Source: Stegostoma tigrinum (Eukaryota). Taken from it: DNA of 64,000 bases. Position numbers and translations under genes: made by a program. The stretch is from NCBI RefSeq assembly GCF_030684315.1, contig NC_081390.1, positions 18,810,906 to 18,874,905 of the forward strand. Reading direction: 5' to 3'. Under the pieces are notes generated by a model. That model worked only from the letters and a program-made list of their open reading frames with translations, searched no databases and was not told where the DNA came from. Below, in pieces: positions 2,161 through 63,738 of the stretch; the stretch's first letter is position 1, and each line of letters opens with the position of its first letter.

Positions 2161-2376
2161 AGACAACAAAGTATGAAGCTGGATGAACACAGCAGGCCAA
2201 GCAGCATCTCAGGTGCACAAAAGCTGATGTTTCGGGCCTAGACCCTTCATCAGGGAGCTCTAGACCCGAAACGTAAGCTTTTGTGCTCCTGAGATGCTGC
2301 TTGGCCTGCTGTGTTCATCCAGCTTCACACTTTGTTATCTTGGATTCTCCGGCATCTGCAGTTCCCATTATTTCTG
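2161..2376. mobile_element. MITE-sized hairpin made of two head-to-head PLE family A 3' ends, 15-bp TSD
   Basis: 2162-2240 is the near reverse complement of 2261-2340; flanked by identical ATAGTAATGAAATCA at 2146-2160 and 2377-2391. Confidence 0.85.
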
Positions 2377-3544
2377 ATAGTAATGAAATCATGCTGCCAT
2401 GTGTCTCTCTGTGCCTTCAGATCTTCAGATATTTGCTGTACTCCTTGACTTGGACATATGTTTAAACTTGGGTGAATGGAAAGCAGATAATATTAATGTC
2501 GCACAAATGTCAGACAGTGACCATCTTCAAAAAGTGAAGAAGTCTAAACACATCTCCTTAACAATTACTTACATTACTATTAACAAATGCCCCACCATCA
2601 CCATTCTGAGGGGTGAGCGTAACTGCATCAACAGATAATTAAATTAAATTAATCAAGAACCCTTCCCATGTCTTTTGCATTACGTACAAATTATCATGTA
2701 CATCTCTGATAGGCATAAACCTTTCCTTCATCATCCTCTTGATCTTAATGCACTGATACAATTCCTTTGTGTTTGCCTTAATTATACTAGAGAATATCTT
2801 TGTACAGCCTCTCTAAGTTTTCTTAACTTTCTTTTTCACTTTACCCCTGTATTTCCTACACTTTTCTAATCTCTCCAAAGAATTTTTGTTTTGAGATTAT
2901 CATAAGCTCTATTTTTCTGCATTACCTTACCATGTGTACTCCTGGGTAACCAGGATAATCTAGATTTAGCAATATCATTGAATTTCTTTGTGGAACATGT
3001 CTACACAGTGCCAGTAGAATTTTACTTCTGAATGTCTCTCACTAGTTTGATACAAACTCTCCTTGTAGAAGCTGTAACCAGTCTACATTTGCCAGATTTT
3101 TGCTCAGCTTTGTAAAGTGCACTTTCCTGAAATTTAGGACATTTACACCTGTTCTGTCTTTGTGCCTTTTGATAACTGTACTAAATCTAACTGCAGTACG
3201 AACATTATCTCCAAAATTGCCATTCACTGCTACTTCATCCATCTGCCTAGCTTCATTTCAGGAGACTGAATATAGAATTATGACTCCACTCATTGGGCTT
3301 ATCACATGCTGGCGAAAAAAAATTCACTTGAATGCAGTTGAAGAATTTCATATCCTTTGTATCTTACACAATCTTGTACCTCAGTTAAATTTCCCAATCT
3401 GAAATCTGCACACATATTGAATCCTCTTGCTCTCTGACACTATTTGGGGGCCTATAGTCAACACCTAGCAATGTGGCTACCCTATTTTTGTTTCAAAGCT
3501 TAATCTATTTAGCTTCAGATTCCCTACCACCATCATTCTGGGAG

Positions 3545-3990
3545 CTTACCATTGACTACATCTTAATTGGACTAGCCTGTTAGATACTGTAGCTAGAAGA
3601 GCAGGTTAGACACTAACAATTCTGTAGCAAATGGTTTGATTATTGAATTTACAATGCTATTCCACCAATGACAATACAAAAGTTAAGGGTATGATGAAAT
3701 ATTTTCAACTTGCGAGGATGAGTGCCGCTCTAACACTTTAAGCTGTGCTCCATCTTGGATCAAGCAGCCCAATAATTAGCACCTTGTCCAAAATATTGAC
3801 CCTTTCCATCACTGAAATGACAGCAATGTCCCTGCAGAAACTCATCATGCCGTCTTCAACTACAATCCACAAGAACTATCCCTTACCAACAAATGGGAGC
3901 ACCAACACATACAATTTCCCCTCCAAACCAATTGTTGACTATATTGTTGTTTCCTCACTGTCTCTGGGTCAAAATCCATTGAGTCTTGGA
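3545..3990 (+). mobile_element. Old LINE-like interspersed repeat fragment (unclassified)
   Basis: Similar to the reverse complement of 26840-27345; same family appears at ~6310-6710, ~18800-19480, ~24520-24895 and ~44590-44930. No intact ORF. Confidence 0.45.
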
Positions 3991-6961
3991 GTCCAGGGGA
4001 GCTTAGACCCAGGAAAGGAAGATGCTTGGGCTGAACAGGAGCAGTCATTGAGGCAATCCATGATGGAGCAGTTCTGGAAGATTTTCAAAGATAGATCAGC
4101 AAAATTGAAGTGTGAAACCTTGTGAAGTTTAACTAAATTTGATGAGTAACTGCATCATTAATATCTCAGAGGGAATTGCTCAGATATCAATAGCATTTGT
4201 CTTACCCATATTTGGTATTAAATGTCTGCTCTGGAAATGTTGAATCACAGTCTATTGCCCATATTTACCACGTCTTAATTCTGGGTGTTAGAAATTAATT
4301 ATATATGTATTGCAGGTATTATTGATGTAATCTTGTATAATAAAGTTTATTGTTGTTTGTTCAAAACAATGGAATCGCGTGTCTTTATTCTTCTTATAAT
4401 TTCCCTAAATCTCATATTTTGTCTATCTTAAAAATGTAAATTATTGGCCCCCCCATCAGAGTATAACATAAATTTGCCAGTCCAATCTGAAACTCCATTA
4501 AGTGATTGGATGAAGATGTAAATATTTCAATGTTGTAGTTGAATGCTACAGATGATTGTTTCCAGTTCTTTCATATTGACATTGATGCGGAAATTTAGTA
4601 CGGATGGAAAATTGTAGAAATTTTATAAACTGAAGCCACATTGACTATAACAAAGATCACCCTTTCACCATTATATGCAACTGAATGGAATGTCTTGCCA
4701 GGCACAGCAGGTGGCTGATCCAGAAAATTCTACACTTTTGATTCCACTGTGTCCTCTGGGAAACTTCTGATCTCGAAGGAAAAACAAGTTTGTAAATTCA
4801 CTGGATGACAAATGTGGAGTTAAGTCTGTACAAGAGGCAATAGCAAGCAATATTCCTGCAGCACATTGAAAAGCTGGTACAGCTAAAGCTTAAACCTCAC
4901 AATTAGAAGTTTAAACGTCAATGATTAAAAAGTAATGAACATGGGGGTGACTGAAAAGCACTACATACAATGTATGTTCGTCTTGACGTAAGGACTATAT
5001 ACATTTACTTAAACCTTGGAATAGCATGAGTTTTCATCGCCAAGCTTCAGCACTGCCCAGATTATTTTTTTGATGCACAATTGTTTAATCAATTTAAATA
5101 AAGCCTCTGCAGACTGACAAATGAAATCTTATTTGGTTTGATTACATTATGCTTTAGGTGCTAAAAGAATACTGTATAGGACATTTACATCAGAACTTCT
5201 GAATTAGAATGAATATGTGCTTGCAAATATTTACTCATCATTTATTTCATTTATTCATAGCTAACAACCTTCAGGAGACTCAAAACCTGTAGTTGGGATT
5301 GGAAGGGAAGTAAATGGTAAGGGTGCTGATGAAGGAGGGAATATGTTTTCCTTCCTATTTTAATTTTCCTCGATTCAACTCATAACATTCACCCACTCAG
5401 ATGGAAGAATGGTCATGGGCAATGTAAAAAATTCCAAATTGATTTTAAAGGAAGCTGCATTTAGCAATGCAGGAAAGGATTTCCTCGCCATTCTTCACTT
5501 CATGCTTCAAGGTGACCTGAATGCAACAATTGATACCCTAAGCTCTGGAGAATGTTGTTAGATATGCACTACATACACTTTGATTGAATTCTTCCAATCC
5601 CCAGGCAGGGCATTAGTCAGCAAGCCTCAACTGCCCTGATCCATTGTAATCTCACTTTCTCCAGCTCAGTGTCACTCTTGACGTTCTACCTTATCACACT
5701 TCACCAGATTTTCTTTAGTTAGTCTCAACTTCTTTTCAATCTTTTTGGTGCATATTCTATTGCCACTCTTCTGGGGCATACATAGGGGAGATGAAATACG
5801 TGTCCTGTTGATCTCAGTCATCTCTCTGTCATATTGTCTGACTGGTGCCTTTAAGAAGTCTGCTGTAGCATTTCCTCAATGATGAAGCTGTCACTCTAAG
5901 TGTTGTTTAGGATGTTACATAGCTAGTGACACCTTTGCTGTTCCTTTCCCTATCTCACTTGAATAGATTACACTCTGTCATGTTGGTTGGCAAATGGAGA
6001 AAGATTTGATAGTGTTTATTTTGGAGCATTTGTATGTGGCTCAATCACGTTGTCATCCTGTTAAGGATACACTATGAAGAAGTGAGGTCATTTTGATGTT
6101 TTGAAGAAAAATACTTAATTAGTGAAGGGCCTGGGCCATCTGATGGGGCCATATCCATTTGAGGTCCACAAATGGGAATAGAAGTGTCTTTTCTTTTCAT
6201 TATGTGAAAGTCATGATGGGTTGAGAAAGATCCAGTCCCTTTAAATTTATCTTCCGGCAAGTTCTGAAAATTTCTGGACGCTGAGTCATAGTTGGTAATA
6301 TTTCAGTTAATTTATTCATGAGATGTGAGTATTGATGGCATTTATTACTTATCCCTAATTGTCCAAAGGGCAATTAGAGCCAACTACAATTTGGTGGATC
6401 TGGAGTCACAAGTAGGCCAGATTGGGTCATGATGAGAGGTTTCCATCTGCAAAGGAGATTAATGAACCAGACTTTTATCCCAATTGAGGTTGGTTACATT
6501 GTCACCATTAGGCTTTGCCTTTTATTCTAGATCTTTGTCTAATTATCCATGATCATATCGAATGGCAAAGCGAGCTTGAACAACCAAAAGGCACACTCCT
6601 GCTCCTATTTTCTATGAATTCAAAAGTGCTGCCAATGTCCTCAGACCATTAGCCTGCACTTCTAGATGACTAGTCCAGTGGCCTTACCATTATACCACCA
6701 TGTCTCTGTTGCCAGTATTCCTATCAAGGATTGGCATTCTCTGTGTATCAGATTAACATTTAATAATATGTACAATGACTGACTGTTCACTCAGGTGCCA
6801 ATAGGCAATTAAATAGCTGGTCATTGAGCAAGATCTTTTGCATGATGGTGTTGTGTTCCTCTTTGACCCATGAGAAGAGCTTATAAAAATGAGAAGATGA
6901 CACAAAGAGGCAGTGAAATCACAATACGTTAGGTGAGGTGGGAAGTCCTTTTCTTTGTTGC

Positions 6962-7181
6962 TGAAATAACGGCGCAGAGGCTGGTATCCTGTCACCTAGT
7001 CACCCTTTGTTTACACATGCACAGTACAAGGGCTCTGACCAGTCAGCTCACAGCCAATCCCTAAAATGTGGAGACTCTCTGAATCTGTCAGCCAGGGCTC
7101 CCTAATTGCCTCAGGTTAACAACCCCATTCAAGGATCTCATAGTCGATGGGATCCACCTGGCCCTTATTCCAATCACTACA
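6962..7181 (-). mobile_element. Solo LTR, copy 1 of a ~230-bp family
   Basis: Minus strand begins TGTAGTGATTGG and ends TATTTCA (TG…CA); flanks GTTGC/GTTTC (5-bp TSD, 1 mismatch); homologous to 50486-50721. Confidence 0.7.
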
Positions 7182-8845: not shown

Positions 8846-9235
8846 CATTAAGTCATACAGCATGGAAACAGACCCTTCGGTCCCACTTGTCCACGCTGAT
8901 CATGTTTCCAAACAAAACTAGTCCCAGTTGTCTGCATTTGGTCCATATCCCTCCAAAACATCCCTATTCATGTACCTAGAGTCACAGAGTCAAAGCGCTG
9001 TACAGCATGGAAACAGATCCTTTGGTCCAACTTGTCCATGCCGACCAGTTATCCTAAATTACTCTCATACCATTTACCAGCATTTGGACCATATCTGTCT
9101 AAATCCTTCCATTCATATACACATCCAGATTACCTTTAAATGTTGTAATTGTATCAGCTTCCATCACTCCCTTTGGCAACTCATTCCATACTTGCACCAC
9201 TATCCGCATGAAAATGTTGCCCTTGAGGTCCCTTT
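8846..9235 (-). mobile_element. Two tandem CR1/HER1 LINE 3'-end fragments
   Basis: CAGCATGGAAACAGA…TTGTCCA motif occurs twice (8859 and 9003) and matches the reverse complement of the LINE tail at 10050-10285. Confidence 0.7.
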
Positions 9236-10285
9236 CCTGAGGTTGATGGAGGAGGGTTGCTTTTCAGGCATGAGACCTGTGAATAGTAGTATGCCACAAG
9301 GATCGATGCTGGGTCCTCTGCTTTTCATCATTTATATAAATGATTTAGTTGTGAAAATAGGAAGTATGGTTAATAGATTTGCAGATGGCACAAAAATTGG
9401 AGGCGTAGTGGACAGCGAAGGTGGTTACCTCAGAGTACAATGGGGCCTTGGTCAGATGGGCCAATGGGCTGAGGAGTGGAGGCGGTGTTTAATTTAGATA
9501 AATGTGAGGTGCTGCATTTTGGAAAGGCAAATCAGGGCAGGACTTTTACACTTAATGGTAAAGTCCTGGGGAGTGTTGCTAAACAAAGGGACCTTGGAGT
9601 GCAAGTTCATAGTTCCTTGAAAGTGGAGTCACAGTTAGACAGGATAATGAGGAAGGTATTTGGTATGCTTGCCTTTGTTGGTCAGTGCATTGGGTATAGG
9701 AGTTGGGAGGTCATGCTGTGGCCGTACAGAACATTGGTTAGGCCACTTTTGGAATATTGCATGCACTTCTGGTCTCCCTCTTCTAGGAAAGATGTTGTAA
9801 GACTTGTAAGGGTTCAAAAAAGATTTTCATGCATGTTGCCAGGGTTGGAGGGTTTGAGCTATAGGATGAGGCTGAAAAGACTGGGGCTATTTTCCCTGGA
9901 GCCTCAGAGGCTGCGGGGTGACCTTATGAAGGTTTATAAAAACTTGAGGTGTGTGAATAGGGTAAATGGGCAAGGTCTTTTCCCTGGGGTAGCAGAGTCC
10001 AAAACTAGACAGCATAACTTTAATGTGAAAGGGGGAAGATTTCAAAGGGACCTAAGGGGCAACATTTTCACACAGAGAGAGTTGCATGTATTCAATAGGC
10101 TGCCTGAGGAAGTGGTGCAGGCTGGTACAGTAGTAACATTTAAAAGGATGGCTATATGAATATGAAAGGTTTATAGGGGTTTATACCAAATGCTGGAAAA
10201 TGGGACTAGATTAATTTAGGATATCTGATCAGCATGGATGAGTTCGATCAAAAGGTCGGTTTCTGTGAATACAACTCTATCATTC
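9236..10285 (+). mobile_element. 5'-truncated CR1/HER1-type LINE (RT C-terminal half plus 3' UTR), frameshifted
   Basis: ORFs 8928-9497 and 9476-10159 give MPQGSMLGPLLFIIYINDL…FADGTKIGG…FNLDKCEVLHFG…RDLGV…LVRPLLEYC…LRGDL…WN-like end, typical CR1 ORF2 motifs. Confidence 0.92.
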
Positions 10286-13200: not shown

Positions 13201-13629
13201 GCCATTCAGATAGTATTACAAGATCTTCGATCCTTTATAGCTGGTTACTGGGTTTTGCCAATGCACTCTAGGCCCAAAACGTCAGCCTTCTTGCTCCTCT
13301 GATGCTACTTTGCCTGCTGTGTTCATCCAGCTCTACACCTTGTTATCTCACTAAAATGATATGTCTTTTGTTACTTGTATATACTGCATTCTTGAAAGTG
13401 CTGCCTCTCAAATGGGGGCCAGACCCCTTTCACACTTTGTTCGAGTGAGGTATCAAAGATCCTGTGTCACTATTCCCAAGAACAGTAGCCCTGGCTGATA
13501 TCGAGCTCTCAATCAACAACACCGCTTTCTGCTCATTATCACATTGCTGCCTTCTGTAAGACGTTGTTGTGCACGTTTACAAAGAGACAGCACCCCTGTT
13601 ACAAAGGAATGTAAAAACAGTAATTATTA

Positions 13630-21246: not shown

Positions 21247-21715
21247 CAAAAATACCGAACATATCCCTTACTCCCATTCTAAACACCGGCTCTAACAATG
21301 AGAATGGAAAAATACTTAAATCACCAAACGAAGAAAATAAAACAGCCATTACGATCCATCATTCTAACAATGTCAGAAAATATTCCAACTTCCGGAAGTG
21401 ATGTATTTTTCCCTCTGTTGAAATTCTTTCCTTATGATCCTTTGATCTGCTGGGATGTGGGAGCGTCAGGTTCAGAAAGAAATAACTAAAATTAAACCTT
21501 TCCTTGTAATGACATAAACAGAAGCAGACTCCTTTAAAATGTTCTCATGGCAAAGTAGGGTTTTTCTTTGTTCTCTCTCTGGTGCCGACCAAGAAAAAGA
21601 AGCCCTTCTAATGTCAGAGATAATGGGAACTGCAGATGCTGGAGACTCCAAGATAATAAAATGTGAGGCTGGATGAACACAGCAGGCCAAGCAGCATCCC
21701 AGGAGCACAAAAGCT

Positions 21716-21743
21716 GACGTTTCGGGCCTAGACCCTTCATCAG
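21716..21743 (-). ncRNA. Minimal type I hammerhead ribozyme motif (family A, mirror copy)
   Basis: Reverse complement of 22764-22791. Confidence 0.55.
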
Positions 21744-22763
21744 AGAGGGGGATGGGGGGAGGGAACTGGAATAAATAGGGAGAGAGGGGGAGGCGGACCG
21801 AAGATGGAGAGCAAAGAAGATAGGTGGAGAGGGTGTAGGTGGGGAGGTAGGGAGGGGATAGGTCAGTCCAGGGAAGACGGACAGGTCAAGGAGGTGGGAT
21901 GAGGTTAGTAGGTAGCTGGGGGTGCGGCTGGGGGTGGGAGGAAGGGATGGGTGAGAGGAAGAACCGGTTAGGGAGGCAGAGACAGGTTGGACTGGTTTTG
22001 GGATGCAGTGGGTGGGGGGGAAGAGCTGGGCTGGTTGTGTGGTGCAGTGGGGGGAGGGGATGAACTGGGCTGGTTTAGGGATGCAGTGGGGGAAGGGGAG
22101 ATTTTGAAACTGGTGAAGTCCACATTGATACCATATGGCTGCAGGGTTCCCAGGCGGAATATGAGTTGCTGTAATGCTTGGGGACCGCTTTGCAGAACAC
22201 CTCCGCTCAGTCCGCAACAAACAACTGCACCTCCCAGTCGCAAACCATTTCCACTCCCCCTCCCATTCTCTTGATGACATGTCCATCATGGGCCTCCTGC
22301 ACTGCCACAATGATGCCACCCGAAGGTTGCAGGAACAGCAACTCATATTCCGCCTGGGAACCCTGCAGCCATATGGTATCAATGTGGACTTCACCAGTTT
22401 CAAAATCTCCCCTTCCCCCACTGCATCCCTAAACCAGCCCAGTTCATCCCCTCCCCCCACTGCACCACACAACCAGCCCAGCTCTTCCCCCCCACCCACT
22501 GCATCCCAAAACCAGTCCAACCTGTCTCTGCCTCCCTAACCGGTTCTTCCTCTCACCCATCCCTTCCTCCCACCCCCAGCCGCACCCCCAGCTACCTACT
22601 AACCTCATCCCACCTCCTTGACCTGTCCGTCTTCCCTGGACTGACCTATCCCCTCCCTACCTCCCCACCTACACCCTCTCCACCTATCTTCTTTGCTCTC
22701 CATCTTCGGTCCGCCTCCCCCTCTCTCCCTATTTATTCCAGTTCCCTCCCCCCATCCCCCTCT

Positions 22764-22791
22764 CTGATGAAGGGTCTAGGCCCGAAACGTC
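22764..22791 (+). ncRNA. Minimal type I hammerhead ribozyme motif (family A)
   Basis: CTGATGA-A-GGGT-CTAG-GCCC-GAAA-CG-TC: both catalytic-core boxes, 4-bp helix II, palindromic loopless helix III (ACGT), GUC cleavage triplet; helix I only 2 bp (CT/AG). Activity untested. Confidence 0.55.
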
Positions 22792-23875
22792 AGCTTTTGT
22801 GCTCCTGGGATGCTGCTTGGCCTGCTGTGTTCATCCAGCCTCACATTTTATTATCTTGGAGCCCTTCTAATGTCTTCAGTTGTGTCAGACAGCCCTGTAG
22901 TTTCTGGCAGAACTAGGAAAGCCAAGAATCAGAATTTAATGGAGAGAAAAATATCGCTGATCATTACATTGGCTAGAAAGCAATGGGAATAGTGGGAGCT
23001 CATCAGTTTATGTGAGGCCCTGCAAGGAACCACTGTGTTACTCCAACCAATCACGTCACCCTAATGGACATCTGTTTTTGTCCAGGACAAGGTGGTTCAT
23101 TATCTAACTTTAGGAGCACAACAGGGGATATATACTATGTGAGTCATGGGTGGCTTGTAGAATCCCAAAATTGTGATCGCGTGGAAGGAGGCCATTCAGC
23201 CCATGAAAACTAAACCAGTTCTAATACCCAGTGCTAGTTTTCTGCCTTTTACTCCTATCCCTTCATGCCATCTGATTATCTGACGCCCTCTTGATGCTTT
23301 GATCGTGGATCAACTTTACCTTTGATATTCCAGAGGAGGTGGATTTCTGGCCTGGAATGGATGCTTGGGTATTTCAGTGAAGAAAATTGCCACCATCGCA
23401 AATACGTTTTGGTTCATCCAGTAAATCATGGAAGAATGTTGGAATCAGTCCCAAATCAATCCCCTCCGATTCTGTTTATTTCTCTTAAGCAAGTATCTCA
23501 TTGAAATAATCTTTTAGCTTTAGTTTTGGTCTGTACGCAGTCAATGGACTGAGCAGTGTTTTTGTGAAACACAAAGATCAGGCAAGTTCCAGGTTTGACC
23601 TGGGCAGTACTGGCCTCAGCTGGGGATGCAATCGACTATTGTGTGTGACCTTGGTGTCTCTGCATGTGCATCGAGAAGCAGAGGGAAAAAAAAACCCAGC
23701 CAGGTCTCCTCTGTGAGCTTCCAATCAAAGTGAATCAAAACCTCACCCTGGCATTTTGCATGCATCATTCTTGTATGAAGAATGTTTCACAAGCTCTGTA
23801 CCTGTGCCCTCTTGTTGATTCCTCGTTCTTTCAGCTCTCCTCTCCTCACAACGCTGCGAGCCTACACTCTGGCAT

Positions 23876-29877: not shown

Positions 29878-29982
29878 AGTTCTAAGGAAGGGTCACCGGA
29901 CCTGAAATGTTAACTCTGATTTCTCTCCACAGATGCTGCCAGACCTGCTGTGCTTTTCCAGTCATTTCTATTTTTATTTCTG
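29878..29982 (+). mobile_element. Short PLE-like family C copy with decayed hammerhead core
   Basis: AGTTCTAAGGAAGGGTCACCGGACCTGAAATGTTAACTCTGATTTCTCTCCACAGATGCTGCCAGACCTGCTG. Confidence 0.7.
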
Positions 29983-30552: not shown

Positions 30553-30795
30553 TGAGATAATGGGAACTGCAGATGCTGGAGAATTCCAAGATAATAAAAT
30601 GTGAGGCTGGATGAACACAGCAGGCCAAGCAGCATCTCAGGAGCACAAAAGCTGACGTTTCGGGCCTAGACCCTTCATCAGAGAGGGGGATGGGGAGAGG
30701 GAACTGGAATAAATAGGGAGAGAGGGGGAGGCGGACCGAAGATGGAGAGAAAAGAAGATAGTTGGAGAGAGGGTAGGGAGGGGGGTAGGGAGATG
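30553..30795 (-). mobile_element. PLE family A 3'-end fragment with intact hammerhead motif (30654-30681)
   Basis: Near-identical to 21616-21860; minus strand reads CTGATGAAGGGTCTAGGCCCGAAACGTC. Confidence 0.88.
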
Positions 30796-31425: not shown

Positions 31426-32836
31426 ATAACAAAGTGTGGAGCTGGATGAACACAGCAGGCCAAGCAACATCTCAGGAGCACAAAAGCTGACATTTCGGGC
31501 CTAGACCCTTCATCAGAGAGGGGGATGGGGTGAGGGAACTGGAATAAATAGGGAGAGAGGGGGAGGCAGACTGAAGATGGAGAGAAAAGAAGATAGGTGG
31601 AGAGGAGAGTATAGGTGGGGATGTAGGGAGGGGATAGGTCAGTCCAGGGAAGATGGACGGGTCAAGGAGGCGGGATGCAGTTAGTAGGTAGGAAATGGAG
31701 ATGCAGCTAGAGGTGGGAGGAAGGGATAGGTGAGAGGAAGAACAGGTTAGGGAGGCGGGGACAGGCTGGGCTGGTTTTGGGATGCAGTGGGGGCAGGGGA
31801 TGAGCTGGGCTGGTTTTGCGTTGCATTGGGGGAAGGGGAGACTTTGAAGCTTGTGAAGTCCACATTGATACCATTGGGCTGCAGGGTTCCCAAGTGGAAT
31901 ATGAGTTGCTGTTCCTGCAACCTTTGGGTGGCATCATTGTGGCACTGCAGGAGGCCCATGATGGACATGTCATCTAAAGAATGGGAGGGGGAGTTGAAAT
32001 GGTTCGCAACTGGGAGTTGCAGTTGTTTATTGTGAACCGAGCGGAGGTGTTCTGCAAAGCGGTCCCCAAGCCTCTGCTTGGTTTGGTTTCCCCAATGTAG
32101 AGGAAGCCACAACGGGTACAGTGGATGCAGTATACCACATTGGCAGATGTGCAGGTGAACATCTGCTTAATATGGAAAGTCATCTTGGGGCCTGGGATAG
32201 GGGTGAGGGAGGAGGTGTGGGGGCAAGTGTAGCACTTCCTGCAGTCGCAGGGGAAGGTGCCGGGTGTGGTGGGGTTGGAGGGGAGTGTGGAGCGGACGAG
32301 GGAGTCGCGGAGAGAGTGGTCTCTCCGGAAGGCAGACAAGGGTGGGGATGGAAAAATGTCTTGGGTGGTGGGGTCGGATTGTAGATGGCAGAAGTGTCGG
32401 AGGATGATGCGTTGTATCTGGAGGTTGGTGGGGTGGTATGTAAGAACGAGGAGGAACCTCTTGGGGCGGTTGTGGCGGGGGCGGGGTGTGTGGGATGTGG
32501 TGCAGGAAATGCGGGTGATGCGGTCAAGGGCGTACTCGACCAATGTGGGGGGATAGTTTCGGCCCTTGAAGAACGTGGACATCTGGGATGTGCAGGAGTG
32601 GAATGCCTCATCCTGGGAGCAGATGCAGTGGAGGCAGAGGAATTGGGAATAGGGGATGGAATTTTTGCAGGAGGGTGGGTGGGAGGAGGTGTATTCTAGG
32701 TAGCTGTGGGAGTCGGTGGGCTTGAAATGGACATCAATTTCTAGCTGGTTACCTGAGATGGAGACTGAGAGGTCCAGGAAGGTGAGGGATGTGTTGGAGA
32801 TGGCCCAGGTGAACTTGAGGTTGGGGTGGATGAAAT
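31426..32836 (-). mobile_element. 5'-truncated Neptune-type PLE (RT thumb, Cys-rich linker, GIY-YIG endonuclease), frameshifted
   Basis: HPNLKFT…LTFLDL…FKPTDSHSYL…SSHP…IPYSQF; linker PGTFPCDCRKCYTC; FTCTSANVVYCIHCTRCGFLYIGETK then frameshift at a duplicated AAACC (~32080) to QRLGDRFAEH…VANHF…GIN. 15-bp TSD AGGCCTGTTCCACAG at 31411-31425 and 32837-32851. Confidence 0.93.
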
Positions 32837-35800
32837 AGGCCTGTTCCACAGTTGGGAAAAGAAAGGAAGGAGTAGGACGAAACTGATCGTACGTAATGTC
32901 ATTCACCAACTGAGACCATCCCAAAACAGTGTTTATTCCCAGCGCAGGAGCTAAGAGGACCTGCATTACAAATGGCCACTTTACTCCATACATTTGTGCA
33001 GTATGTTCAACCTGTGATCACACACCATTAGCATTAGACAGGCTTCAGCCTGACATGTACAAACTGCAAATTCTTGATGCCCTTTCAAAAAGTTGATGCA
33101 CTTTTAAACAGTTCAACCATAAGTTGCCTTCGCTGTATCTTAAGGTGATTATCTCTGAGAAGTTAAGACTTTAATGCCGATGATTTGCTGCTAAGTATAG
33201 TCTGACTGATTTCAGCATGATTTAAAAATAACCTTTTGCCAGAAAATTAAAAGGAAAGTGCTGAGATTGAGTTTATGCAGGGCTGAAAGGGCAGCCACTT
33301 AAGTGAGATCAGCGCTGACAGTGAAATAAATAAAGTCTGTGAAAACACAGGGAAAAGGATCAAGACCAAATCGAAACATGGTCACCACTTTTGAAAGCTA
33401 CTCACTCAACGGCTCCTCGCGAGTTTCCTTTCATTGCATTGGCCCTTATTTACGTATTATTTCTAATATGCAACGTATCACTGCTGGACACAAATTTAAA
33501 AGCCACACTGCAATGTTGCACAAATGTATAAGGTGTGACCTTAGCAGGTGGCCTTGTCACAATTACAGCCTAACTTTTCGGCCTCATCAGTGGACTTGAA
33601 AGATTCTACACGTTACTTTGAACAGAGTCAGGGAATTATCCCTGGTGACTTCAACGTTTACCGCCCAACACATTACCTTAAATCAGATTGTCTGGGTATT
33701 ATTTCTAGGTGTTTGTACGAGCTTGTTGTGCACAATTTAGCTAACATGCTCCCCATGTCCCAACGGGAACAATGCTTCACTTTATTGGCCCACATCCTGA
33801 AGTCATGAAGGACACTTCAGAACTTCAGGTCTGTCTTTTGCTGGTTGCGCAGATGTGGTACAGAGACAGTCTGAGAAATGATTAACAGCTAAGGAGAAGA
33901 AAACTGAAATGTTGCATTGTCTAGTTCTTTGCATGGATAGCTGTAGTCAGCGTGGAGTTTCCAATCATCCCTGTGCAACTTGGTTCACTTATTTTTAAAA
34001 AAAATTGAATATTTGGCCATTATTTTACTTTTGGCCATTAGTGAAGGTGGCAGAGCAAGAAACCTAGTGAGAGATGTGTGATTTTACAGAACTCTGGATC
34101 TCTCTGTTTCACTGTTTTGAGACAGAGCCAAGCACAACTGTTTCTTACAGCTGAGTCAGAATCACCTCTACGTCACCTCCCACCATGTTGGAGTGGATAG
34201 TTCAATTTGCTTATTTCCCCTTTCTATTCATTTAACCTACAGTGGTTTCTGGTCTACAATAGGTTTATTACATACATGTTCGAATTCCTCAATGGGCTCA
34301 CCTTGCGCAAAGCCTGTAACTTCCTCTAGTCTTAGCAAACACTATGCTTCTCTCACTGGCTTGTACATGTTTCCCCTTCCTTCGCCCCATCGTTGGTGCC
34401 TATGCCTTTAGATATCCTGGCGCTGAACTCTGGAATTTCCTCCTTCAGCTTTTCTTTTTCACCATCTCCTTTTGGAGCCACGGCATCTTTGACTGAGCTT
34501 TGTCTTCTTTGTCTTCTTTTTAAAAAATGGTTTAATGCATTCCAACTATATTGCATGGCAAAGTGTCAACCTGAAAATTGTGTTCAATCAGATTATTTGT
34601 ACATTCGCTCTGCTAGTTTCTTTTTTAAATCCAGTAAGCACAATTTTATTGCATATTTCTGAAGAAAGACAACTGTGAGGGTTAAATAGCCAGGGGTGGT
34701 TCTAGCTGAGATGCTGTTGTAGGGACTTAGTTAGAGACTTGATTAGCCAAATATGTTCCTTCTGTGCTGTCACCATTCTATGAAAGTTATTGGTCCTCTT
34801 AAGTAGTTTGTTAGAGGTTTATGCAGAGGTTTTGTGTTCTTTTGGCAGACGGATTTTGTGGTGGTAAAACTTGGATAATGCATGACCTCGCTGGCAAAAG
34901 TAAATGTCTGTAACATGAAGGGATCTCATTTTATGAATGGGTCTCCCGTGGAAGAGGTGGTAAAAGATTTGGGAGGAGTCGTTCATAGCAGGCTGAAAAT
35001 ATCATGCGAGAGAAAGACATTTGATTTACATGTTCAAACAAGGTGTGCAGATTAAAAGATTGGCCAATCCTGTCAACGCATTTTGTTACATTTTAAACCC
35101 ACACCGAAAAAAGACGTGTGTGTCAGCATGCTTTCCAAAGAGAAGACCAGGAAGGAACTAAACTCTAAAGCATGGTGCAATCAGCAATAAAGAATGGTCA
35201 ATTAAAGTAGTTTTTCTTAAAATACATAAGACTGAAATGAGAAAACTACTAAACCTGGACCAGAGGCTATGTGTATGATCTATGCAGACTTTAGATGATA
35301 AATGTTAAAGTGCCTTTTATTTCAGTCATTTAGTTAAGACTGAGATGGCAGTTGATCCACGCCCTCCCTTTTTTAGAAAGGAAGCTGGATTGATAGGATG
35401 TGAGGAATTCCAATGGATTTGTTAGTTGAATGGAATGCCCTGCAAGGGTTGTGTTTAGTTAAAGAGACTTCTTTTCATGGGTAGACCTGCCACATCCTGA
35501 GAGGTCATGCCTGGTCTGAGGTAGATTTTCCACCTTGGGACAAATTGAGAAAGTTCCACCTAAGTTTTGCCATATTGATTTTGATTTTAACTTTTTCAGT
35601 TAAAAATTATCTGTGTAACTACACATGTAAAATCTTCCGCAAGGCAAGGCAATTGGACAACTAGATAGAATTGGTTCCTTTTGCTTCCTTTGTGTTAACA
35701 AGTACACCCTGATGTCGTGGACGGGATTAATTGCTGTATATACGGGTGTGGATTTGGGGAAAAATAAACTGAGCTGTGAAAGGAGGTGTAAGGCTGGGCT

Positions 35801-37164: not shown

Positions 37165-37260
37165 AGAGAACAAAGTGTGGGGCTGGATGAATACATCAGG
37201 CCAAGCAGCATCTTAGGAGCACAAAAGCTGACGTTTCAGGCCTAGACCCTTCATCAGAAA
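37165..37260 (-). mobile_element. PLE family A 3'-end fragment
   Basis: ACAAAGTGTGGGGCTGGATGAA…GCTGACGTTTCAGGCCTAGACCCTTCATCAGA. Confidence 0.75.
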
Positions 37261-37547
37261 CTGAGATTACACATCATAGAATCCCTCTAGTGTGGAAACA
37301 GGCCATTTGGCCCATACTTAGCTCTACGGCTATCCTGATGACAAATGCTATTTTCAACTCAACAGTGACAAAATAGCTGGAAGGTTAGTTTTCAGACATT
37401 TCGTCACCATTCTAGGTAACATGATCAGTGAGCCTTCGACAAAGCGCTGGTGTTATGTCCCGCTTTCTATTTATCTGGTTAGGTTTCCTTGGGTTGGTGA
37501 TGTCATTTCCTGTTCTTTCTCAGGGGATGGTAAATTGGCTCCAAATC

Positions 37548-38408
37548 AAACTGCCATTCCTAGATGTCACAGTAGAGCGAACAGCCAATGGGGAACTTCA
37601 AACCAGCGTCTACAGGAAAACAACACATACGGACCAAATACTGAACTACAGGAGCAACCATCCCAACACCCACAAGCGAACCTGCATTAGAACATTATTC
37701 CAACGAGCCACTGCACACTGCAGCACAGAGGAACTACGCAGAGCAGAAGAAAATCACCTATACAGCGTATTCATAAAGAATGGGTACCCTATGAACACAG
37801 TCTGCCGATTCCTCAGCAAGAAACCCAAACAAACAGACAAAATGGGCTCAGAAACCATAACCACGCTCGCCTACATCAAAGACACTTCTGAAATGACTGC
37901 CAGACTACTCGGACCTCTTGGCATCAGGGTAGCCCACAAACCCACCAACACACTGAAACAGCAGCTAATGAACTTCAAAGACCCTATGCAGACAACAAAC
38001 AAAACGAACATCATCTACAAAATACCTTGCAAGAACTGTGGCAAACACTACATTGGACAAACAGGCAGAAAGCTAGCCACCAGGATACATGAACATCAAC
38101 TAGCCACAAAACGACAAGACCCACTATCACTCGAATCCTTACATACAGATGAGGAAGGACACCACTTTGATTGGGACAACACATCCATCCTAGGACAAGC
38201 CAAACAGAGACACGCACGAGAATTCCTAGAAGCATGGCATTCCAACCGGAACTCCATCAACAAACACATTGATATGGAGCCAATCTACCATCCCCTGAGA
38301 AAAAGAACAGGAAATGACATCACCAACCCAAGGAAAGCTAACCAGATAAATAGAAAGCAGGACATAACACCAGCGCTTCGTCGGAGGCTCACTGATGATG
38401 TTACCTAG
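37548..38408 (+). pseudogene. Open but 5'-truncated PLE RT-thumb plus GIY-YIG endonuclease reading frame
   Basis: KLPFLDVTV…SVYRKTTHTDQILNYRSNHP…NGYP…NIIYKIPCKNCGKHYIGQTGRKLATRIHEH…REFLEAWH…SIN; lacks the Neptune Cys linker. Confidence 0.9.
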
Positions 38409-38428
38409 AATGGTGACGAAACATCTGA
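38389..38428 (+). ncRNA. Minimal type I hammerhead ribozyme motif (family B)
   Basis: TCA-CTGATGA-T-GTTACC-TAGAAT-GGTGAC-GAAA-CA-TC-TGA: 3-bp helix I, 6-bp helix II; the inverted copy reads GAAATGTC, implying ancestral GAAACGTC. Confidence 0.6.
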
Positions 38429-43875: not shown

Positions 43876-44008
43876 TTCTGAAGAAAGGTCACCGGCCCTG
43901 AAACGTTAACTCTGTTTTCTCCTTCACCAATGCTGCCAGACCTGCTGGGCTTTTCCAGCAACTTTGTTTTAGTTCCTGATTTACAGCATCCACAGTTCTT
44001 TTGGTTTT
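43876..44008 (+). mobile_element. Short PLE-like family C copy with hammerhead core boxes
   Basis: CTGAAGA (43878-43884)…GAAACGTT (43900-43907) AACTCTG…TGCTGCCAGACCTGCTG…CAGCATCCACAGTTCTTTTGG. Confidence 0.72.
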
Positions 44009-53269: not shown

Positions 53270-53686
53270 ATTGAGAACTTATCAGCTGCAATAAGACCAC
53301 AAGTTTCTGATGCTTTTGGAGGACCTCCCAACCAGCAACCATCTCAATTTGGAATGTATCCACAAGGCCAGGGTGGTCAGCCTGGTGCTCCCACCTACAA
53401 TCCAGGATATCCTGGTTCCAACCCAGGATTTCCAGCCTCCGGCCCGACTCCAGGATATCCGTCCGGCCCGACTCCAGGATATCCGTCCGGCCCGGCTCCA
53501 GGGTATCCGTCCGGCCCGGCTCCAGGGTATCCGTCCGGCCCGTCTCCAGGGTATCCGTCCGGCCCGTCTCCAGGGTATCCGTCCGGCCCGTCTCCAGGGT
53601 ATCCGTCCGGCCCGTCTCCGGGTTATGGAGCTAGTCCATCACAAGGGTACCCCTCAAACTCCTCTTCAGTTGCAGCACCAGTGAAG
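53270..53686 (+). CDS. ANXA11: Annexin A11 coding exon 3, Gly/Tyr/Pro-rich low-complexity domain (IENLSAAIRP…VAAPVK)
   Basis: TTCTGTTCTGTTTAG acceptor, AAG|GTATGA donor, 417 nt open, phase 0-0, same frame as ORF 53354-53692. Confidence 0.9.
53438..53629 (+). repeat. Coding 24-bp tandem repeat, SGP(T/A/S)PGYP x8
   Basis: TCCGGCCCG(A/G/T)CTCCAGG(A/G)TATCCG units read directly. Confidence 0.95.
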
Positions 53687-54834
53687 GTATGAGAGGCCAG
53701 ATTAGTATACAAATTAGAGTAAACTCGCTTTATGTGCCAATGTTTAAAATCTGGTATATTCAGTGCTGCTTTATTTCTAGAATTTGTGTCTGAACAATGT
53801 AATGTAAATATCATTCATCAAATAGTCTGCAGCACTGACATCTGGAGTAGCCAATGTGGACTAGAGACTAAGGTAGCTATGGTCAGGAGAGGACTGGGGA
53901 GGGTTGGTGTGCAATAGGCAGGCATTGACTGAAGTGGGTTGACAAAATGGATGAGTCAGTGTATGTTCTAGGAACCTTGTACATTTGGTTGCCTCAAGAA
54001 ATGGAAGCAGAGTCGGAACTGAAGGGTAAGGTCCTGGAGAAATTTTACAGATGTAGCCAGAGGAAGTATGTGACTATTTTCTGAATGGGCTGTTCCCTCG
54101 ATTATTTTTCAGAATAAGTCAAATTTTTTGCCTTTGTCTCTTAGATGTCAGTCACTCATACATTCCGCTTCATTCAGAAGCCCCCATTGCGATCCCTTTT
54201 GCAATATTGTTAGGAAAGACACACAAACCCGCATGTTCATGAATCTCACGTGTGACCACCATTCTTACCATGAATGTGATGAGTCTTGTTAATGAAGAAA
54301 ATGAAGCAACAGATTGCTGGTGGAAACTATCCTAATTTTCGATTTTTTGATGTTGTTTGGCATTTTATACATCAGGTTTTCTCAGAATTTGAGGTAAGCT
54401 TCACTAATGTGTGTTTTGGAATTGTTTCTACTGAGATAACTGCATGTCATCCTGCATTAGATCAATCATCTTCACAGTAAGCTACTCTCAGCAATCATAG
54501 ATTCAAATCCAGAGATTTCTCCCTTTTATTAACAACTAACCCATAATCAAAATACCGTGTGATGCTGAAAATAATGAAATAAAAAGCTTTCAAAAAGGAT
54601 GTCATAAGTGCCGTTAGGAGGTTAGATGAAAATAAAAGCTAACAGTAGAAAGTGCCTGAAGTATTCAAAAGTGTCTATGAAGATAGAAATTACATTAAAG
54701 TCTCAGACTGATGACCCATCATCTAAGAGAGAGTGTTTTGCTGCAGTTAATTCAAAGACATGTTAAATTGAGACATATGTGTGAAAAGGTATTCAGATTT
54801 ATTTATCTTTTTGAAATTTTCAAGAGTTGTGTTG

Positions 54835-57578: not shown

Positions 57579-57689
57579 CTGACTCTGACCATTCACTTAT
57601 TAAGAGACATTGCAATGAGACTTAATGAAGCTGAGAAGTTTACCCCATGGTGGACTGGATGATGCTGAAGAGATGCAAAGAGGTTTTGG

Positions 57690-58420: not shown

Positions 58421-58555
58421 ACTCATGGTCATTGGGACACCCACCCTTTTTTTTTGTTGGAAAAGCAACTGTCCGATGACTGACTGTATCCCAATGAAGA
58501 AATAATGCTGTGATTTTGAATTATTGAATTAACAGAAATCTCTTGTTATCTTCAG

Positions 58556-58643
58556 CCTGTGAACCGGGGAACTGTAAGAGAAGCTCCAGGGTTTGATGCC
58601 TTGAGGGATGCTGAAGTACTTAGGAAAGCAATGAAAGGTTTTG
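58556..58643 (+). CDS. ANXA11: Annexin A11 coding exon 4: [29 protein letters not shown](G)
   Basis: TTATCTTCAG acceptor, TTG|GTGAGT donor, 88 nt, phase 0 to 1; start of annexin repeat 1. Confidence 0.96.
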
Positions 58644-58942
58644 GTGAGTGAATCTGCAAAGTATGTTGCTGTTTCTTCCTCCTCCGGCCTGCATTCCTGG
58701 TAGAAACTGAGTGGATGGTTCTGGAATGGGAAGAGAAAATGTTCGATGTGGTGGTTCTTCCTCTTTGCCTTTTAATGACCCTTGCTGGAAAGTACACGTG
58801 CGTGTTTGTGGGATATTTGGTCAGTTGTGATGCCTTTCATGGGCAAAGAACTGCTTATGATTCCTGTTTAAGAATGATCTCGCATTCTTAATATGCTTAG
58901 CCAGCATTTATTGTGATTCACCTAAAAGTGCGTTCACTGTTA

Positions 58943-59113
58943 CGCCAGACAGCATTAGAGAAGCAGGAAAGTTGACGTTTTGGGTCGAGACCCTTCTTCA
59001 AAAAATGATTTGAAACATCAACTTTCCCGCTCCTCTGCTGCCTGGCGTGTTGCATTCCTCCAGCTCCATACTGTGTTATCTCTGACTCTAGCATCTGCAC
59101 TTTTTACTATCTC
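58943..59113. mobile_element. PLE family A-related hairpin with 14-bp TSD
   Basis: GCAGGAAAGTTGACGTTT … AAACATCAACTTTCCCGC inverted; flanks TGCGTTCACTGTTA (58929-58942) / TGCATTCACTGTTA (59114-59127). Confidence 0.72.
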
Positions 59114-60131
59114 TGCATTCACTGTTATATGGCTCAACAACTAAGGCAGCTATTTTGTACATAACAACATCCCATGAACAACAAGAAAAGTGATAGGGCA
59201 TTATTTTTGGGTGGCAGCATCTGAGGTATAAATGTTGACCAGGATACGGAGGAAAGCTCTCTGCTATTTGAGTTAGATGTGCGTTAATTCTATCATATGG
59301 CATGAAGTTAATGGGCCGTATAGCTTCCTTCTGTGACATAGTGACACGTTACCTCAGCACCATCGCCTCCCCAACAAGACCCTATTTCACCAGACTAGTA
59401 ATCCAGGGCTGATTGGTTAGCTAGTTTGTTCTGCAGAACAGCGTAGGTTCACTTCCTGTACTGGCTGAAGTCACCTCAATGGTCCCACTGTCTTGACCTC
59501 TCCCCTTGTCTGAGGTGTGGTGACCCTTGGGTTCTACTTCCAGGAGTCTTGTCTCTAATGAGAGAGCCCTATGGGACAAGAGTGTCATTTTTTACTTTAA
59601 TTGTGACATTTTGTTCGTCCAAGTATGTTTTTGGCTCCTTTTAACTGCTTAACTGATTTGGAATTCGCACTCTGATATCAAAGTGGGTCTAAAAAATGAC
59701 TTTAATTAGACTTCAGCTGTTATTTTTACACTGGCAATATTCTAAATTCCCATTAGCAAGTGTTGTACAAAATAGTGGCAAAAACAAAGATTGACTGATA
59801 GCTCAGGAAGCTGCTCACAAAAGCAGCATTATCTTTCAGCTAAGGTAATAAAATCAATCTACATATTTACAGCTTATTTTGTGGTGATTTGAAGTTATGT
59901 TTAATAAAAAAATAAAGAAAATGTCCTGAACCTTGTTGGGGGGGGGTCAAAGAAGCTGCAATAGAGAACAATGTTGAAATCATTTTCATACGTGACTCAG
60001 CATACTCTAATTGCAGAGCATTTCTAGCGGGTGATTTACTTGGAATTTTTTTTGAATAAATTTCGAATGCAATGTTTGATCGGGATGTAACAGTGGGTAC
60101 TACTCTTGATTATGAATTCCTCTGTTCCTAG

Positions 60132-60226
60132 GCACAAATGAACAGGCCATTATTGACGTAGTTGCTCATCGTTCGAATAAGCAGAGGCAACAGATAGTAT
60201 TGTCCTTCAAAACAGCGTATGGAAAG
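60132..60226 (+). CDS. ANXA11: Annexin A11 coding exon 5: (G)[31 protein letters not shown]
   Basis: TTCCTAG acceptor; 95 nt, phase 1 to 0; ends AAG|GCAAGT (GC donor); [18 protein letters not shown] matches ANXA11. Confidence 0.95.
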
Positions 60227-61341
60227 GCAAGTATCTTTGGTTGCTGGGTGAGCGAGGCTCAGGATCTTTGTTTCACCTCCCCTCACTTTTGAAGAAAACC
60301 ACATCCAAATAACTTAATGTTACTGCCATAGTGTGGGCTGAAGGCAAAAATTCCTTCAGTCCTCCATTAGATTTTCTTGAGAGGGGAATGATTCCATGTG
60401 CCAGTATCCCAAAGCAGGGCAATGGAATCCTTCCTGTTCCGGTCAATATTTATTCTTCAACTAAGCTCCCAGAAACAGTTTATCTGGTCATTGTCGTGCT
60501 ACTGCTTGTGGGATAAATTGGCTTTCATGTTCCTTCCTATATTCCAAGACCTTGAGACAGAACAGAAGTAGGCCATTCAGCTCATCATGCTGACTCCACC
60601 ATTCAGTCAGATAATGGCTGATCTGACAGCCCTCAATTCCACTTTCCTGCTTTATCCCCACAACCCTTGATGCCCTCTTGAATGCTTTAATCAGAAGTAC
60701 CTCCACCCACACTTCCAGACAGTGCATTTCAGAATCCAATTCTGTGTTGTTTCCTCAATCCTATTTGTGTTCTAATATTATATTTCAATATTATAGTCCA
60801 ATATTGAAAAGTTATGAAATGCTTTGGAATATCCTGAGGCAGTGAAAGATACTGTGTCAACAGGAAATTGTGGGAGCAACATTTATACATTGTGTATGAA
60901 CCTTTAGAGAAAAAAATAGGTGACACAATGACAACACAAAATAGTTTTCTAACAAAATAAATACAATTTCGACAGTTGTAACTGGGAAAGTATTTGATGG
61001 AGGAAATGTGCCTAGCAGTAGGTTTGAATATCTCCTTATCGTCCTCAACTACTAACATTGTTCTAATCCTCAGTGGAATCCTCCAGCCCAGTTATTGATC
61101 TTTTGCACATCCTTGGATGTAGGAGCTCATTGGAGCACTGATCGAACCTTCTCATTTAGCAATATTGCCACCCTCTTGATAATTTTGAGGTGAGGGTAGC
61201 GGTGGTGGTTGTGAGGGATCCTGTCAGGAGCAATGTATTATATGTATGATGACATGACGTAGATGCAGTATTCTCTGGTCTAGGAGAAGCTCCAGACCAC
61301 GTGTTGCCATGCCTTTGATATTTGACCTTTGTCTGTTGCAG

Positions 61342-61455
61342 GATTTGATAAAGGAGCTGAAGTCCGAGTTGTCGGGTAATTTTGAGAAGTCAGTCCTGGC
61401 ATTGCTGAAGCCATCTGTGCTTTATGATGCAGCTGAACTGAAGGATGCCATCAAG
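61342..61455 (+). CDS. ANXA11: Annexin A11 coding exon 6: DLIKELKSELSGNFEKSVLALLKPSVLYDAAELKDAIK
   Basis: TGTTGCAG acceptor, AAG|GTCAGT donor, 114 nt, phase 0-0; gene continues past the window. Confidence 0.96.
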
Positions 61456-62699
61456 GTCAGTGATGAGCTGCTGAAGCAGTACAGCAACAGACCTGTTTTT
61501 GCACAGAACTGCAGCATGGAGTTAGCAACACTGAAACAGGCTATACTTGTTTATGCTCTGTCTGAGTAACTTCGCACCTTACTCCACCAAACCCTGTTAA
61601 CATAATTAGTTCTCGTGCACTTAGCTTCCCCTTAAATGTGTCTGTGTGAATCATCTTAGCCACTTGTTGTGGTAGGAAGTTTCACAAAGTAATTGCTTTT
61701 TAGGCAGAGACGTTTCTCATGAATTCTCTATTAGATTTACTGGGGCTATGTTACATTAGATGGTGCAGGATTTTGGTCTCCCTGACCCAGTGGAAGTACT
61801 TCCTCCACCTCTGCCCTGTTCAACCCCTTCATAATTTTAAAGGCCTCTACCAAATCACTGCTCTGGCCTTTATTTTCTAACAACTGGTGCAGATACAAAG
61901 TCCACCTTGTGGGTTTTTCTTTGATTCCTTCTTCCAGTCTAATGTGTTGCAAAGTGAGCAAATTGCACAGTTTTGAAACAGTTACATGTGGGCGTTAACT
62001 TTATCTATATCATACACAAAAAAATACATTGACAACTCAGTGCCTAATATTTTTGAGTTAGTTTCAACAATGCTAATAAGCATGGAACAGCATGACGCGA
62101 GAGATAATTAGCAGGATAAGAGTGCAGAGTGAAGTACCAAAGCAGATTAGCTACTTAATGCCTCTTGTCCAACAATTTTGATGCTTTCAACCACCTAATA
62201 AAAATTGAGTTCTATTTACTTTTGATTTGAATTAGTTTTAGTGTCACATATACTGAAAGGAGTTTACAAGTTGCCACTTAAGGCGCCATCTTGTATACGC
62301 ATAAACAGATTCCTCGGTACAAGTTTTTAGGAAAATAATTAGAAAAATGAAGAAATAAAATGTCCAGCTTTACAGATCATAGGAACAAATTGGAAAAATA
62401 AATCAAACGTTCAGAATAATAGTCCTTCCAACCCAGTGGATGCTGGCACTTAGCTTCCAGACTGTGCCGGGCTTTACCTCAAAGCCAGGAGACTGCTCTG
62501 GAATCACCTCAAGGCTGCAAGTCCATGCTGAGGCCATGTTCCATGGGTCTGAAGAGTCTTATCTGCCCAGGAGGTGTTTAATAATATGTACAAAAAGGTT
62601 GCTTTCCCTTTTTAGAAAGAAAGGCATTCATCTCTCAGACACCTCTTGTGTTGTCTTGGTTCAAGTCAATGTATGGTTTAGAAGGGGTGGCTGCTAGGA

Positions 62700-63470
62700 A
62701 GTTGTTTCCATTAGGCAGGGAGACTAGGACCAGTGGGCACAGCCTTAAAATTAGAGGGGGTAAATTTAAAACTGAAATGAGATGACATTTCTTCAGCTAG
62801 AGAGTGGTGGGCTTGTGGATTCATTGCCACGGAGTGCAGTGGAGGCCGTGGACGTTGGATGCCTTCAGGGCAGAGATCGACAAATTCTTGATCTCAAAAG
62901 GAATCAAGGGCTACAGGGAGAGCAGGGAAGTGGTGTTGAAATGCCCATCAGCCATGATTTAAGTGGCGGAGTGGACTTGATGGGCCGAATGGCCTTACTT
63001 CCACTCCTATGTCTTAAGACCATAAGACCATAAGTCCCACCTGTCTCAGACGTACGTTGTAACATCTCTGAAAAGGGTGTTTTAAAAATAATTTTTCCTG
63101 TTTTCCCTAGAATTTAGAAGGTTATAGGGTGATCTGGTCAAAGTCGTGAAGATATTAACAGAAAAAAAACAGGGTAAATAAAGATAAACTATTTCCACTG
63201 GTTGTGGGGAATTCTAGAATAGGAGGCTTGAAAATTCGGGCCAGACTCTTCAGGAGGAATACGAGGAAACATGTTTACACATAGAGAGTGACAAAGGTTT
63301 GAACTCTGTTCCACAAATGGATGCGAGATCGGTTGATAATCTTATACTAGTGATAGATTCAATTTTTGTTGAGCAAATGTATTAAGGCAGGTATATTGAG
63401 TTAGACCACCATTAGCCATGACCCAATGAAGCAGAACAGGCTTGCGGGACTGAATGGCCTACTCCTGTTC
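62700..63470 (+). mobile_element. Two CR1-type LINE 3' fragments (~62700-63030 and ~63105-63470)
   Basis: GACTAGGACCAGTGGGCACAGCCTTAAAATTAG…GAATGGCCTTACTTCC; GGTTATAGGGTGATCTG…GAATGGCCTACTCCTGTTCC. Confidence 0.7.
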
Positions 63471-63489
63471 CCTGCACGACGACAACAAC

Positions 63490-63738
63490 AACAAAAACAG
63501 AAGTTTCTGCAAAAGTTCAGCAGGTCTGGCAGCATCTGCAAAGAAAAAAGTCAGTTAACGTTTTGGGACCGGTGACTGTTCCACAGAACTGGAACAAAAA
63601 CGAAGTTGCTGGAAAAGCTCAGCAGGTTCGGCAGCATCTGTGAAGAAAAAAAAATCAGTTAATATTTCGGGTCCAGAGACCCTTCCTCAGAACTCATGTT
63701 CTGCTGAGCTTTTCCAGCAACTTTGTTTTTGCTCCAGC
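63490..63738 (-). mobile_element. Tandem pair of family C copies plus short inverted tail
   Basis: AAAAC(A)GAAGTT…CAGCAGGT…GCAGCATCTG…TCAGTTAA…CAGAACT occurs twice (63493-63590, 63596-63695), then inverted CTGCTGAGCTTTTCCAGCAACTTTGTTTTTG. Confidence 0.75.
63657..63694 (-). ncRNA. Minimal type I hammerhead ribozyme motif (family C)
   Basis: Minus strand AGTT-CTGAGGA-A-GGGTC-TCTG-GACCC-GAAA-TA-TT-AACT: 4-bp helix I, 5-bp helix II, palindromic helix III. Confidence 0.6.

Follow-up and report, generated by a model that had tools for sequence, protein, structure and literature searches.

Minimal hammerhead ribozymes of a known type in the terminal repeats of three PLE families of Stegostoma tigrinum

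Minimal type I hammerhead ribozymes (min-HHRs) of metazoan Penelope-like elements (PLEs) were described in 2014 (Cervera and De la Pena 2014, PMC4209133), where the minimal motif is placed in fish Xena, Poseidon and Neptune elements and in many invertebrates. The published metazoan consensus comprises an extra base, a missing loop III and a palindrome, and the extra base and the palindrome are common to PLE min-HHRs from cnidarians to reptiles (PMC4209133). Canonical hammerheads are stated to be universal in PLE clades other than two Chlamys subclades, and the cellular role of PLE hammerheads is still called unclear (PMC8557442). They are reported to cleave as dimers via a palindromic stem III (Lunse, Weinberg, Breaker, RNA Biol 14:1499, cited in PMC6765202). 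In the Anolis Poseidon element PAc (Frangieh et al. 2024, PMC11167929), two reverse-transcription start sites have been shown, uncut RNA is the main template and cleavage is protein-assisted; in the Penelope of Drosophila virilis, the 3' end of a 75-nt intron maps to helix I (PMC4209133). The vertebrate non-LTR retrozymes (Li, Clavereau, Pollet 2026, bioRxiv 10.64898/2026.07.22.740005) are built of tandemly repeated units that are some hundreds of bases long; in the one chondrichthyan reported to have them, the mean unit is 363 bp.

The DNA analysed here, a stretch of 64,000 nucleotides of the Stegostoma tigrinum genome (the window), contains 31 terminal-repeat remnants of three PLE families (16 of family A, 2 of family B and 13 of family C), nine of which pass a descriptor combining the core with helix II. 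The PLE minimal type I hammerheads proposed by the initial annotation are indeed present: the core boxes CUGANGA, GAAA and UH are accompanied by helix II, by an extra base between positions 9 and 10.1 and by G10.1-C11.1, loop III is missing, and a palindromic A15.1-N-N-U16.1 is found, decayed in several of the window copies originally cited. The motifs belong to the already described PLE min-HHR type, and what is added is new families and an unusually high count. The likeness to the metazoan PLE min-HHRs (PMC4209133) extends from the type I core without loop III, the palindromic 15.2-16.2, the extra base at 9/10.1 and G10.1-C11.1 to the terminal-repeat location and to the occurrence mostly as single truncated copies and opposite-strand pairs; family A differs from them in its helix II of 4 bp and in its helix I of only 2 bp, compared with the 4-5 bp described for schistosome min-HHRs.

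PAc (PMC11167929) is alike in carrying a terminal-repeat hammerhead that is intact in insertions and in having two reverse-transcription start sites that give an optional 30-40-nt tail; however, the PAc ORF starts at stem II, whereas in family B a stop codon lies in loop II, and PAc is a Poseidon element whereas family A is Neptune-type. Transcription of the D. virilis Penelope (Schostak et al. 2008, PMC2377424) likewise begins within a partial tandem's upstream pseudo-LTR, but 46 nt before the 75-nt intron, while the start inferred here would be about 4 nt before the core. The vertebrate retrozymes (bioRxiv 10.64898/2026.07.22.740005) share the derivation from PLEs and the type I hammerhead; unlike them, nearly all the copies found here are non-tandem stubs of autonomous families, with only two short arrays seen. 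No shark terms occur in the searched supplement files of PMC4209133, an Rfam scan of the window, with E values of up to 5 allowed, matched no family of hammerheads, and among the papers listed in literature searches none dealt with hammerhead families of shark PLEs or with 5' ends of PLEs that coincide with the ribozyme. It is possible that these chondrichthyan families are already catalogued.

The family A hammerheads at 22764-22791 (+), 21716-21743 (-) and 30654-30681 (-) are intact and lie exactly where they had been annotated, with the cut predicted after 22791. The first has a helix II of 4 bp and a helix I of 2 bp, and the second is its mirror partner within a recent inverted PLE insertion (21616-22861), whose 527-nt arms are 100% complementary, with a 30-nt tail on the left arm only and a GIY-YIG ORF remnant inside; a 15-bp target-site duplication flanks it (left 21601-21615 (+), right 22860-22874). 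The copy at 30654-30681 has a long tail, and 835 nt away, on the same strand, lies another family A hammerhead (31489-31516, -) whose palindrome has decayed to ATGT; ACGU and AUGU of this pair could still pair via one G-U wobble. Upstream of the latter, an ORF remnant (31974-33017, -) retains the RT thumb, the Cys linker and GIY-YIG and is 88% identical to the long ORF of locus L124. Short family A stubs form a head-to-head pair at 2156-2377; its minus copy (2226-2253) has its start 4 nt ahead of the core, is preceded by a G and carries ACAT; another stub (37230-37257, -), starting 1 nt before the core, is inserted beside the family B element.

Family B is represented by an ORF remnant without the Cys linker (37425-38408, +; GIY-YIG E 0.0029, below the curated cut-off), whose TAG stop (38406-38408) is the first triplet of hammerhead loop II. 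In the hammerhead itself (38392-38425, +, GAAACATC), the core boxes and the extra T are present, helix II comprises 6 bp and helix I 3 bp; the palindrome attributed to it has decayed to ACAT and, thus, is no longer one. Its helix II is unrelated in sequence to those of A and C and still pairs, as had been noticed. An inverted family B hammerhead with a broken core (CTGATCA, G8 changed) lies at about 37395-37428 (-), as placed by the nhmmer match. At another locus (L131), loop II is altered and the family B frame reads through the ribozyme. The single string proposed for family C fits none of the copies cited for it: the one at 29882-29911 (+) has a broken core (CTAAGGA), the one at 43878-43907 (+) keeps the core and ACGT with helix II reduced to 3 bp, and in the one at 63661-63690 (-), with a helix II of 5 bp and a helix I of 4 bp, ATAT replaces ACGT; this last is followed by a second decayed family C copy (63499-63592). 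Apart from these elements, the window contains an RT remnant of another type (8922-10159, +; Pfam RVT_1 E 0.00017), which we take to be CR1-like from its motifs, and an open frame with 8-residue PGYPSGPx repeats (53270-53692, +), possibly a host exon.

The statistics rest on 117 unselected stretches, the window together with 116 further 10-kb pieces, which amount to 1,182,167 bases once N is discounted; loci picked for a feature were excluded from this set. In this sample a structure descriptor with the extra base fixed gave 116 matches, compared with 0 in the reversed and 0 in the complemented sequence; a zero-loop descriptor that left the extra base free gave 64 matches in 582 kb, compared with 1 in the reversed sequence and 1-2 in each of five shuffles. 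Genome-wide, exact motifs number 92,176 for family A and 6,988 for family B and near-exact family C motifs 1,022, with control counts of 0 in all cases, and a tight general pattern (intact boxes plus ACGT) occurs 177,577 times against 37 in the control; about 4,000 and 9,000 copies have been reported for coelacanth and Xenopus, respectively, with different descriptors (PMC4209133). Scaling from the 116-match sample suggests some 310,000 genomic copies with intact core boxes, and the density is about one intact motif per 18 kb in a genome of 3.2 Gb. Older hammerhead variants, including at least four B-like ones and A-like forms with a changed helix II or helix I, were seen at L074, L146, L153, L156, L060, L165 and L021:2989, and the genome therefore holds more than three families.

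Among the 116 descriptor matches, the slot between GAAA and U16.1 is occupied by CG in 73 and by the CpG-decay products CA, TG or TA in 41; since these forms account for 114/116, the ancestral state was the ACGU palindrome. The pair 10.1-11.1 is G-C in 95 matches, G-T in 19 and A-T in 2, and helix I measures only 2 bp in family A, 3 bp in B and 4 bp in C. Across families, the core boxes stand out from their flanks: in an alignment of 22 variants, 10/46 columns are invariant and every one is a core position, double changes are seen in 8/9 helix pairs, and 87.9% of the helix cells are paired, compared with 62.9% after shuffling and 42.4% in the best slid control. These variants are hand-picked, related and chosen with a descriptor demanding the core and helix II, so that the evidence for those parts is overstated; helix I lies outside the selection criteria, and its two inner pairs are formed in 20/22 and 21/22 variants. 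Between families, the core and the pairing are conserved, while single copies decay, with no selection detected on them.

In A and B, the ORF encodes RT and GIY-YIG domains and has the hammerhead at its 3' end. Each element has one ORF with an RT plus GIY-YIG at its C-terminus, as in EN+ PLEs, the GIY-YIG matches being below the Pfam cut-off and RVT_1 being above the curated cut-off for B only. PLE architecture is also apparent in the pseudo-LTR tandems (locus L088, a full repeat-ORF-repeat unit of 3,528 nt from hammerhead to hammerhead), in the inverted 5' copies (21616-22861 of the window) and in the optional 30-40-nt tail; a second candidate for a full unit (L087) turned out to be two separate insertions. 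Family A open frames reach 1,023 codons, and, of the named relatives of the protein, two from bamboo sharks come closest, at 75-78% identity. At L050:7289-9991 (-), a 900-codon family A ORF has an expanded TVDADGTPP repeat near its start. The Cys linker between RT and EN (CX2-5CxxC), a mark that distinguishes Neptune from Poseidon (PMC8557442), is present in A and absent in B, which has the C-terminal EN without the linker as expected for Penelope/Poseidon; by this one linker motif, rather than by a tree, A is assigned as Neptune-type and B as Poseidon-type. At L020, a family C hammerhead lies 255 nt behind an ORF that is 48% identical to that of A over 531 aa, and C is assigned as Neptune-type on this identity, the linker being degenerate in this single C copy read. 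A and C also have a downstream terminal repeat in common (nhmmer E about 1e-5 to 1e-4), and judging from these sequence matches they are homologous, C being the older of the two Neptune-type families. The possibility that C is a separate SINE was rejected, as its long copies reach an ORF. At three further loci (L137, L138 and L139; G000 C22, C14 and C54), family B copies adjoin ORFs with ZCCHC3-like RNA-binding domains and zinc knuckles, and a differing sequence (TGGGAA) follows the B hammerhead, as if another retroelement inserts directly behind the cut site.

The reading that we favour, with a probability of roughly 0.8, takes the motifs for minimal type I hammerheads carried by the terminal repeats of three PLE families; they were likely inherited, are predicted to cleave solely in dimeric form and are likely carried along passively into nearly every new insertion. 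Transcription of a tandem element would begin at a capped site about 4 nt upstream of the first core and yield an over-length RNA with two hammerheads. These would swap their ACGU strands, form a common helix III of 4 bp and cleave behind GUC or GUU, probably at a low rate and aided by the protein of the element. Reverse transcription would begin 70-100 nt downstream of the cut site, mostly on uncut RNA, and would either run off the RNA start, leaving stubs of 95-130 nt, or continue into the ORF; the stubs would afterwards decay without function.

The position of the RNA start is suggested by the 5' edge of the insertions. In 221 family A copies anchored downstream, 64 of the 5' ends fall at -5 to +2 relative to C3, against 4 at -20 to -6 (p 7e-25); for family C, the corresponding figures are 30 of 72 copies at -8 to +3 and 2 at -50 to -9. 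No such pile-up at the core edge is seen in 12 family B copies, 10 of which run more than 40 nt upstream, and 59,627 of the 92,176 exact A motifs of the genome continue to -6. The sequence at the candidate -4 start would fit the TCT initiator. A G occupies position -5 in 4,969 of the 7,339 genomic A copies that keep -4 to -1 without the native C at -5. An extra 5' G is the mark of capped full-length L1 insertions (PMC11702581). By script, 30 inspected loci with this G comprise 17 inverted junctions, 9 solo and 4 direct ones; read by eye, 9/30 owe the G to templating from the inverted arm and 3/30 to a point change within a long copy, which explains it in part. On these junctions, a capped RNA start of A and C elements about 4 nt before the hammerhead core appears probable.

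The pile-up could, alternatively, originate in the copying step, if the reverse transcriptase stalled or switched template at the C-rich tract, or if ends were joined through AGAG/CTCT microhomology. This would account for the inverted junctions, which make up 33 of the 64 ends at -5 to +2 and several of which are perfect AGAG|CTCT palindromes, and for family B, which has neither the C-rich tract nor the pile-up; but the other 31 ends are not inverted junctions, family C has the same kind of edge with a different upstream sequence, and a G precedes 7/10 ends at -4 against 2/19 ends at -3 to -1 (p 0.002, hand tally). An origin in the copying step is, on the whole, unlikely, though it keeps appreciable weight beside a capped start.

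A second coordinate might be read from the ends at the cut site. Only 1 of 221 sampled A copies ends at +28, and no clean cleavage footprint was obtained from the 221 sampled ends or the inspected genome-wide starts; nonetheless, the genome-wide count of purine-preceded starts is 3,219 at +28 vs 816 at +27 and 822 at +29. Of thirty inspected +28 starts, 16 fold back perfectly (AAGCTT) on the AGCT palindrome, 3-4 represent alterations of an intact ribozyme and 10-11 are true truncations, while at the control positions true truncations are 11/20 and 9/20 by script and slightly fewer by eye; from this, roughly 1,070 true truncations are estimated at +28 vs 300-450 at the controls. AG microhomology is present in 5 of the true truncations at +28, i.e., in half of the cases. 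Two junctions restart at +28, one directly behind a tail (L252) and one after an ORF start (L255). As a cleavage footprint, this excess of ends, confounded by the AGCT palindrome, is suggestive only. The wider idea that the genome preserves a fossil map of both 5' ends of a Neptune-type PLE RNA, one capped and 4 nt ahead of the core, the other uncapped and exactly at the ribozyme cut, is less likely than the start alone and may well prove wrong.

Cleavage by family A itself may be very slow or absent, because helix I has only 2 bp and in the predicted monomer fold the two core boxes pair with each other; ViennaRNA, whose models are not built for double-hammerhead folds, returned none for the homodimers. 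The same two features could mean that the family A motif has lost cutting and is retained as an RNA structure that binds protein or lies close to the promoter; according to PMC11167929, insertion in vitro needs no cleavage and anole RNA-seq gave no reads ending at the cut site. A purely structural role is nevertheless improbable, as the catalytic positions are all invariant across the variants, the helices covary and insertion ends show the modest excess at the cut site described above.

Passive copying likely explains the number of copies. The insertions have two alternative 3' ends, which lie roughly 70 and 100 nt past the cut site, some 30 nt from each other, and match the two start sites of PAc. 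With reverse transcription starting 70-100 nt downstream, the ribozyme is among the first parts copied, often twice in inverted pairs, and the huge count is likely due to most insertions copying it. Within family A, 59 long young copies, chosen by their flanks only and with 2 rows misaligned by indels dropped, differ at 4/590 core sites and at 18/1,357 other non-CpG sites (p 0.25), a comparison of low power; without filtering, the core differs at 13/610. Selection on single A copies was, therefore, not detected among these 59, the core sites being slightly better kept if anything, while the CG of the palindrome differs in 10/118 positions.

It might still be argued that the dispersed copies are working ribozymes, cutting host transcripts as trans-dimers or acting as retrozymes. 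The core and the palindrome are both kept in 43/59 of the long young copies, retrozymes are reported in a chondrichthyan (bioRxiv 10.64898/2026.07.22.740005), and the 1.18 Mb contain two three-unit tandem arrays of family A ends (L151:5076-5678, -, spaced by 301 nt, and L144:7452-8340, +, by 440 and 448 nt). These arrays, however, hold the only 4 same-strand spacings under 500 nt among the 116 matches, and tandem non-coding units each with a hammerhead, as in non-LTR retrozymes, are found only at L144 and L151 and not among the window copies. Most copies are lone or head-to-head, so that no dimer is possible within one RNA; moreover, core protection within family A is not significant, the palindrome CG decays fast, and in vitro monomers were inactive and dimers weak according to the data taken from PMC4209133. 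A working role of the dispersed copies is, for these reasons, decidedly improbable, and of the very large genomic ribozyme population initially announced the 177,577 motif copies stand, but not as a population of working ribozymes. A retrozyme-like tandem of family A ends with a 59-nt spacing was also noted (L089:3794-3853, +), and cis dimers could form in the arrays at L151, L144 and L089.

As for the origin of the motif, true convergence, i.e., a loopless hammerhead gained or reshaped separately by each family, is very improbable, since, although helix II of B is unrelated to that of A and C, the RT regions of A and B are merely 30% identical and independent gain or frequent hammerhead loss has been raised for two Chlamys subclades (PMC8557442), A and C share the downstream repeat and related ORFs, hammerheads are called universal in the other PLE clades and published PLE min-HHRs from cnidarians to reptiles have the extra base and the palindrome in common. 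The initial annotation thus rightly spotted, in new PLE families, a ribozyme of a known type, under a wrong headline of convergence. The hammerheads of A, B and C were likely inherited from a shared ancestor; for the difference between A and B, descent with compensatory drift is the simpler reading, which rests on parsimony and the literature, as about 30 nt of motif alone cannot prove common descent of these two.

The junction patterns are the part worth testing, since their statistics point to two exact positions, -4 for the start of the RNA and a cleavage site following +27, and the families, being young and with long open ORFs, are good material for testing them. No over-length RNA able to hold two hammerheads could be shorter than a transcript that begins directly at the first ribozyme, which fits the dimer model. 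If both ends were true, they would represent in vivo evidence for cleavage by a PLE minimal hammerhead and for reverse transcription of its cut RNA, evidence that RNA-seq in anole did not yield.
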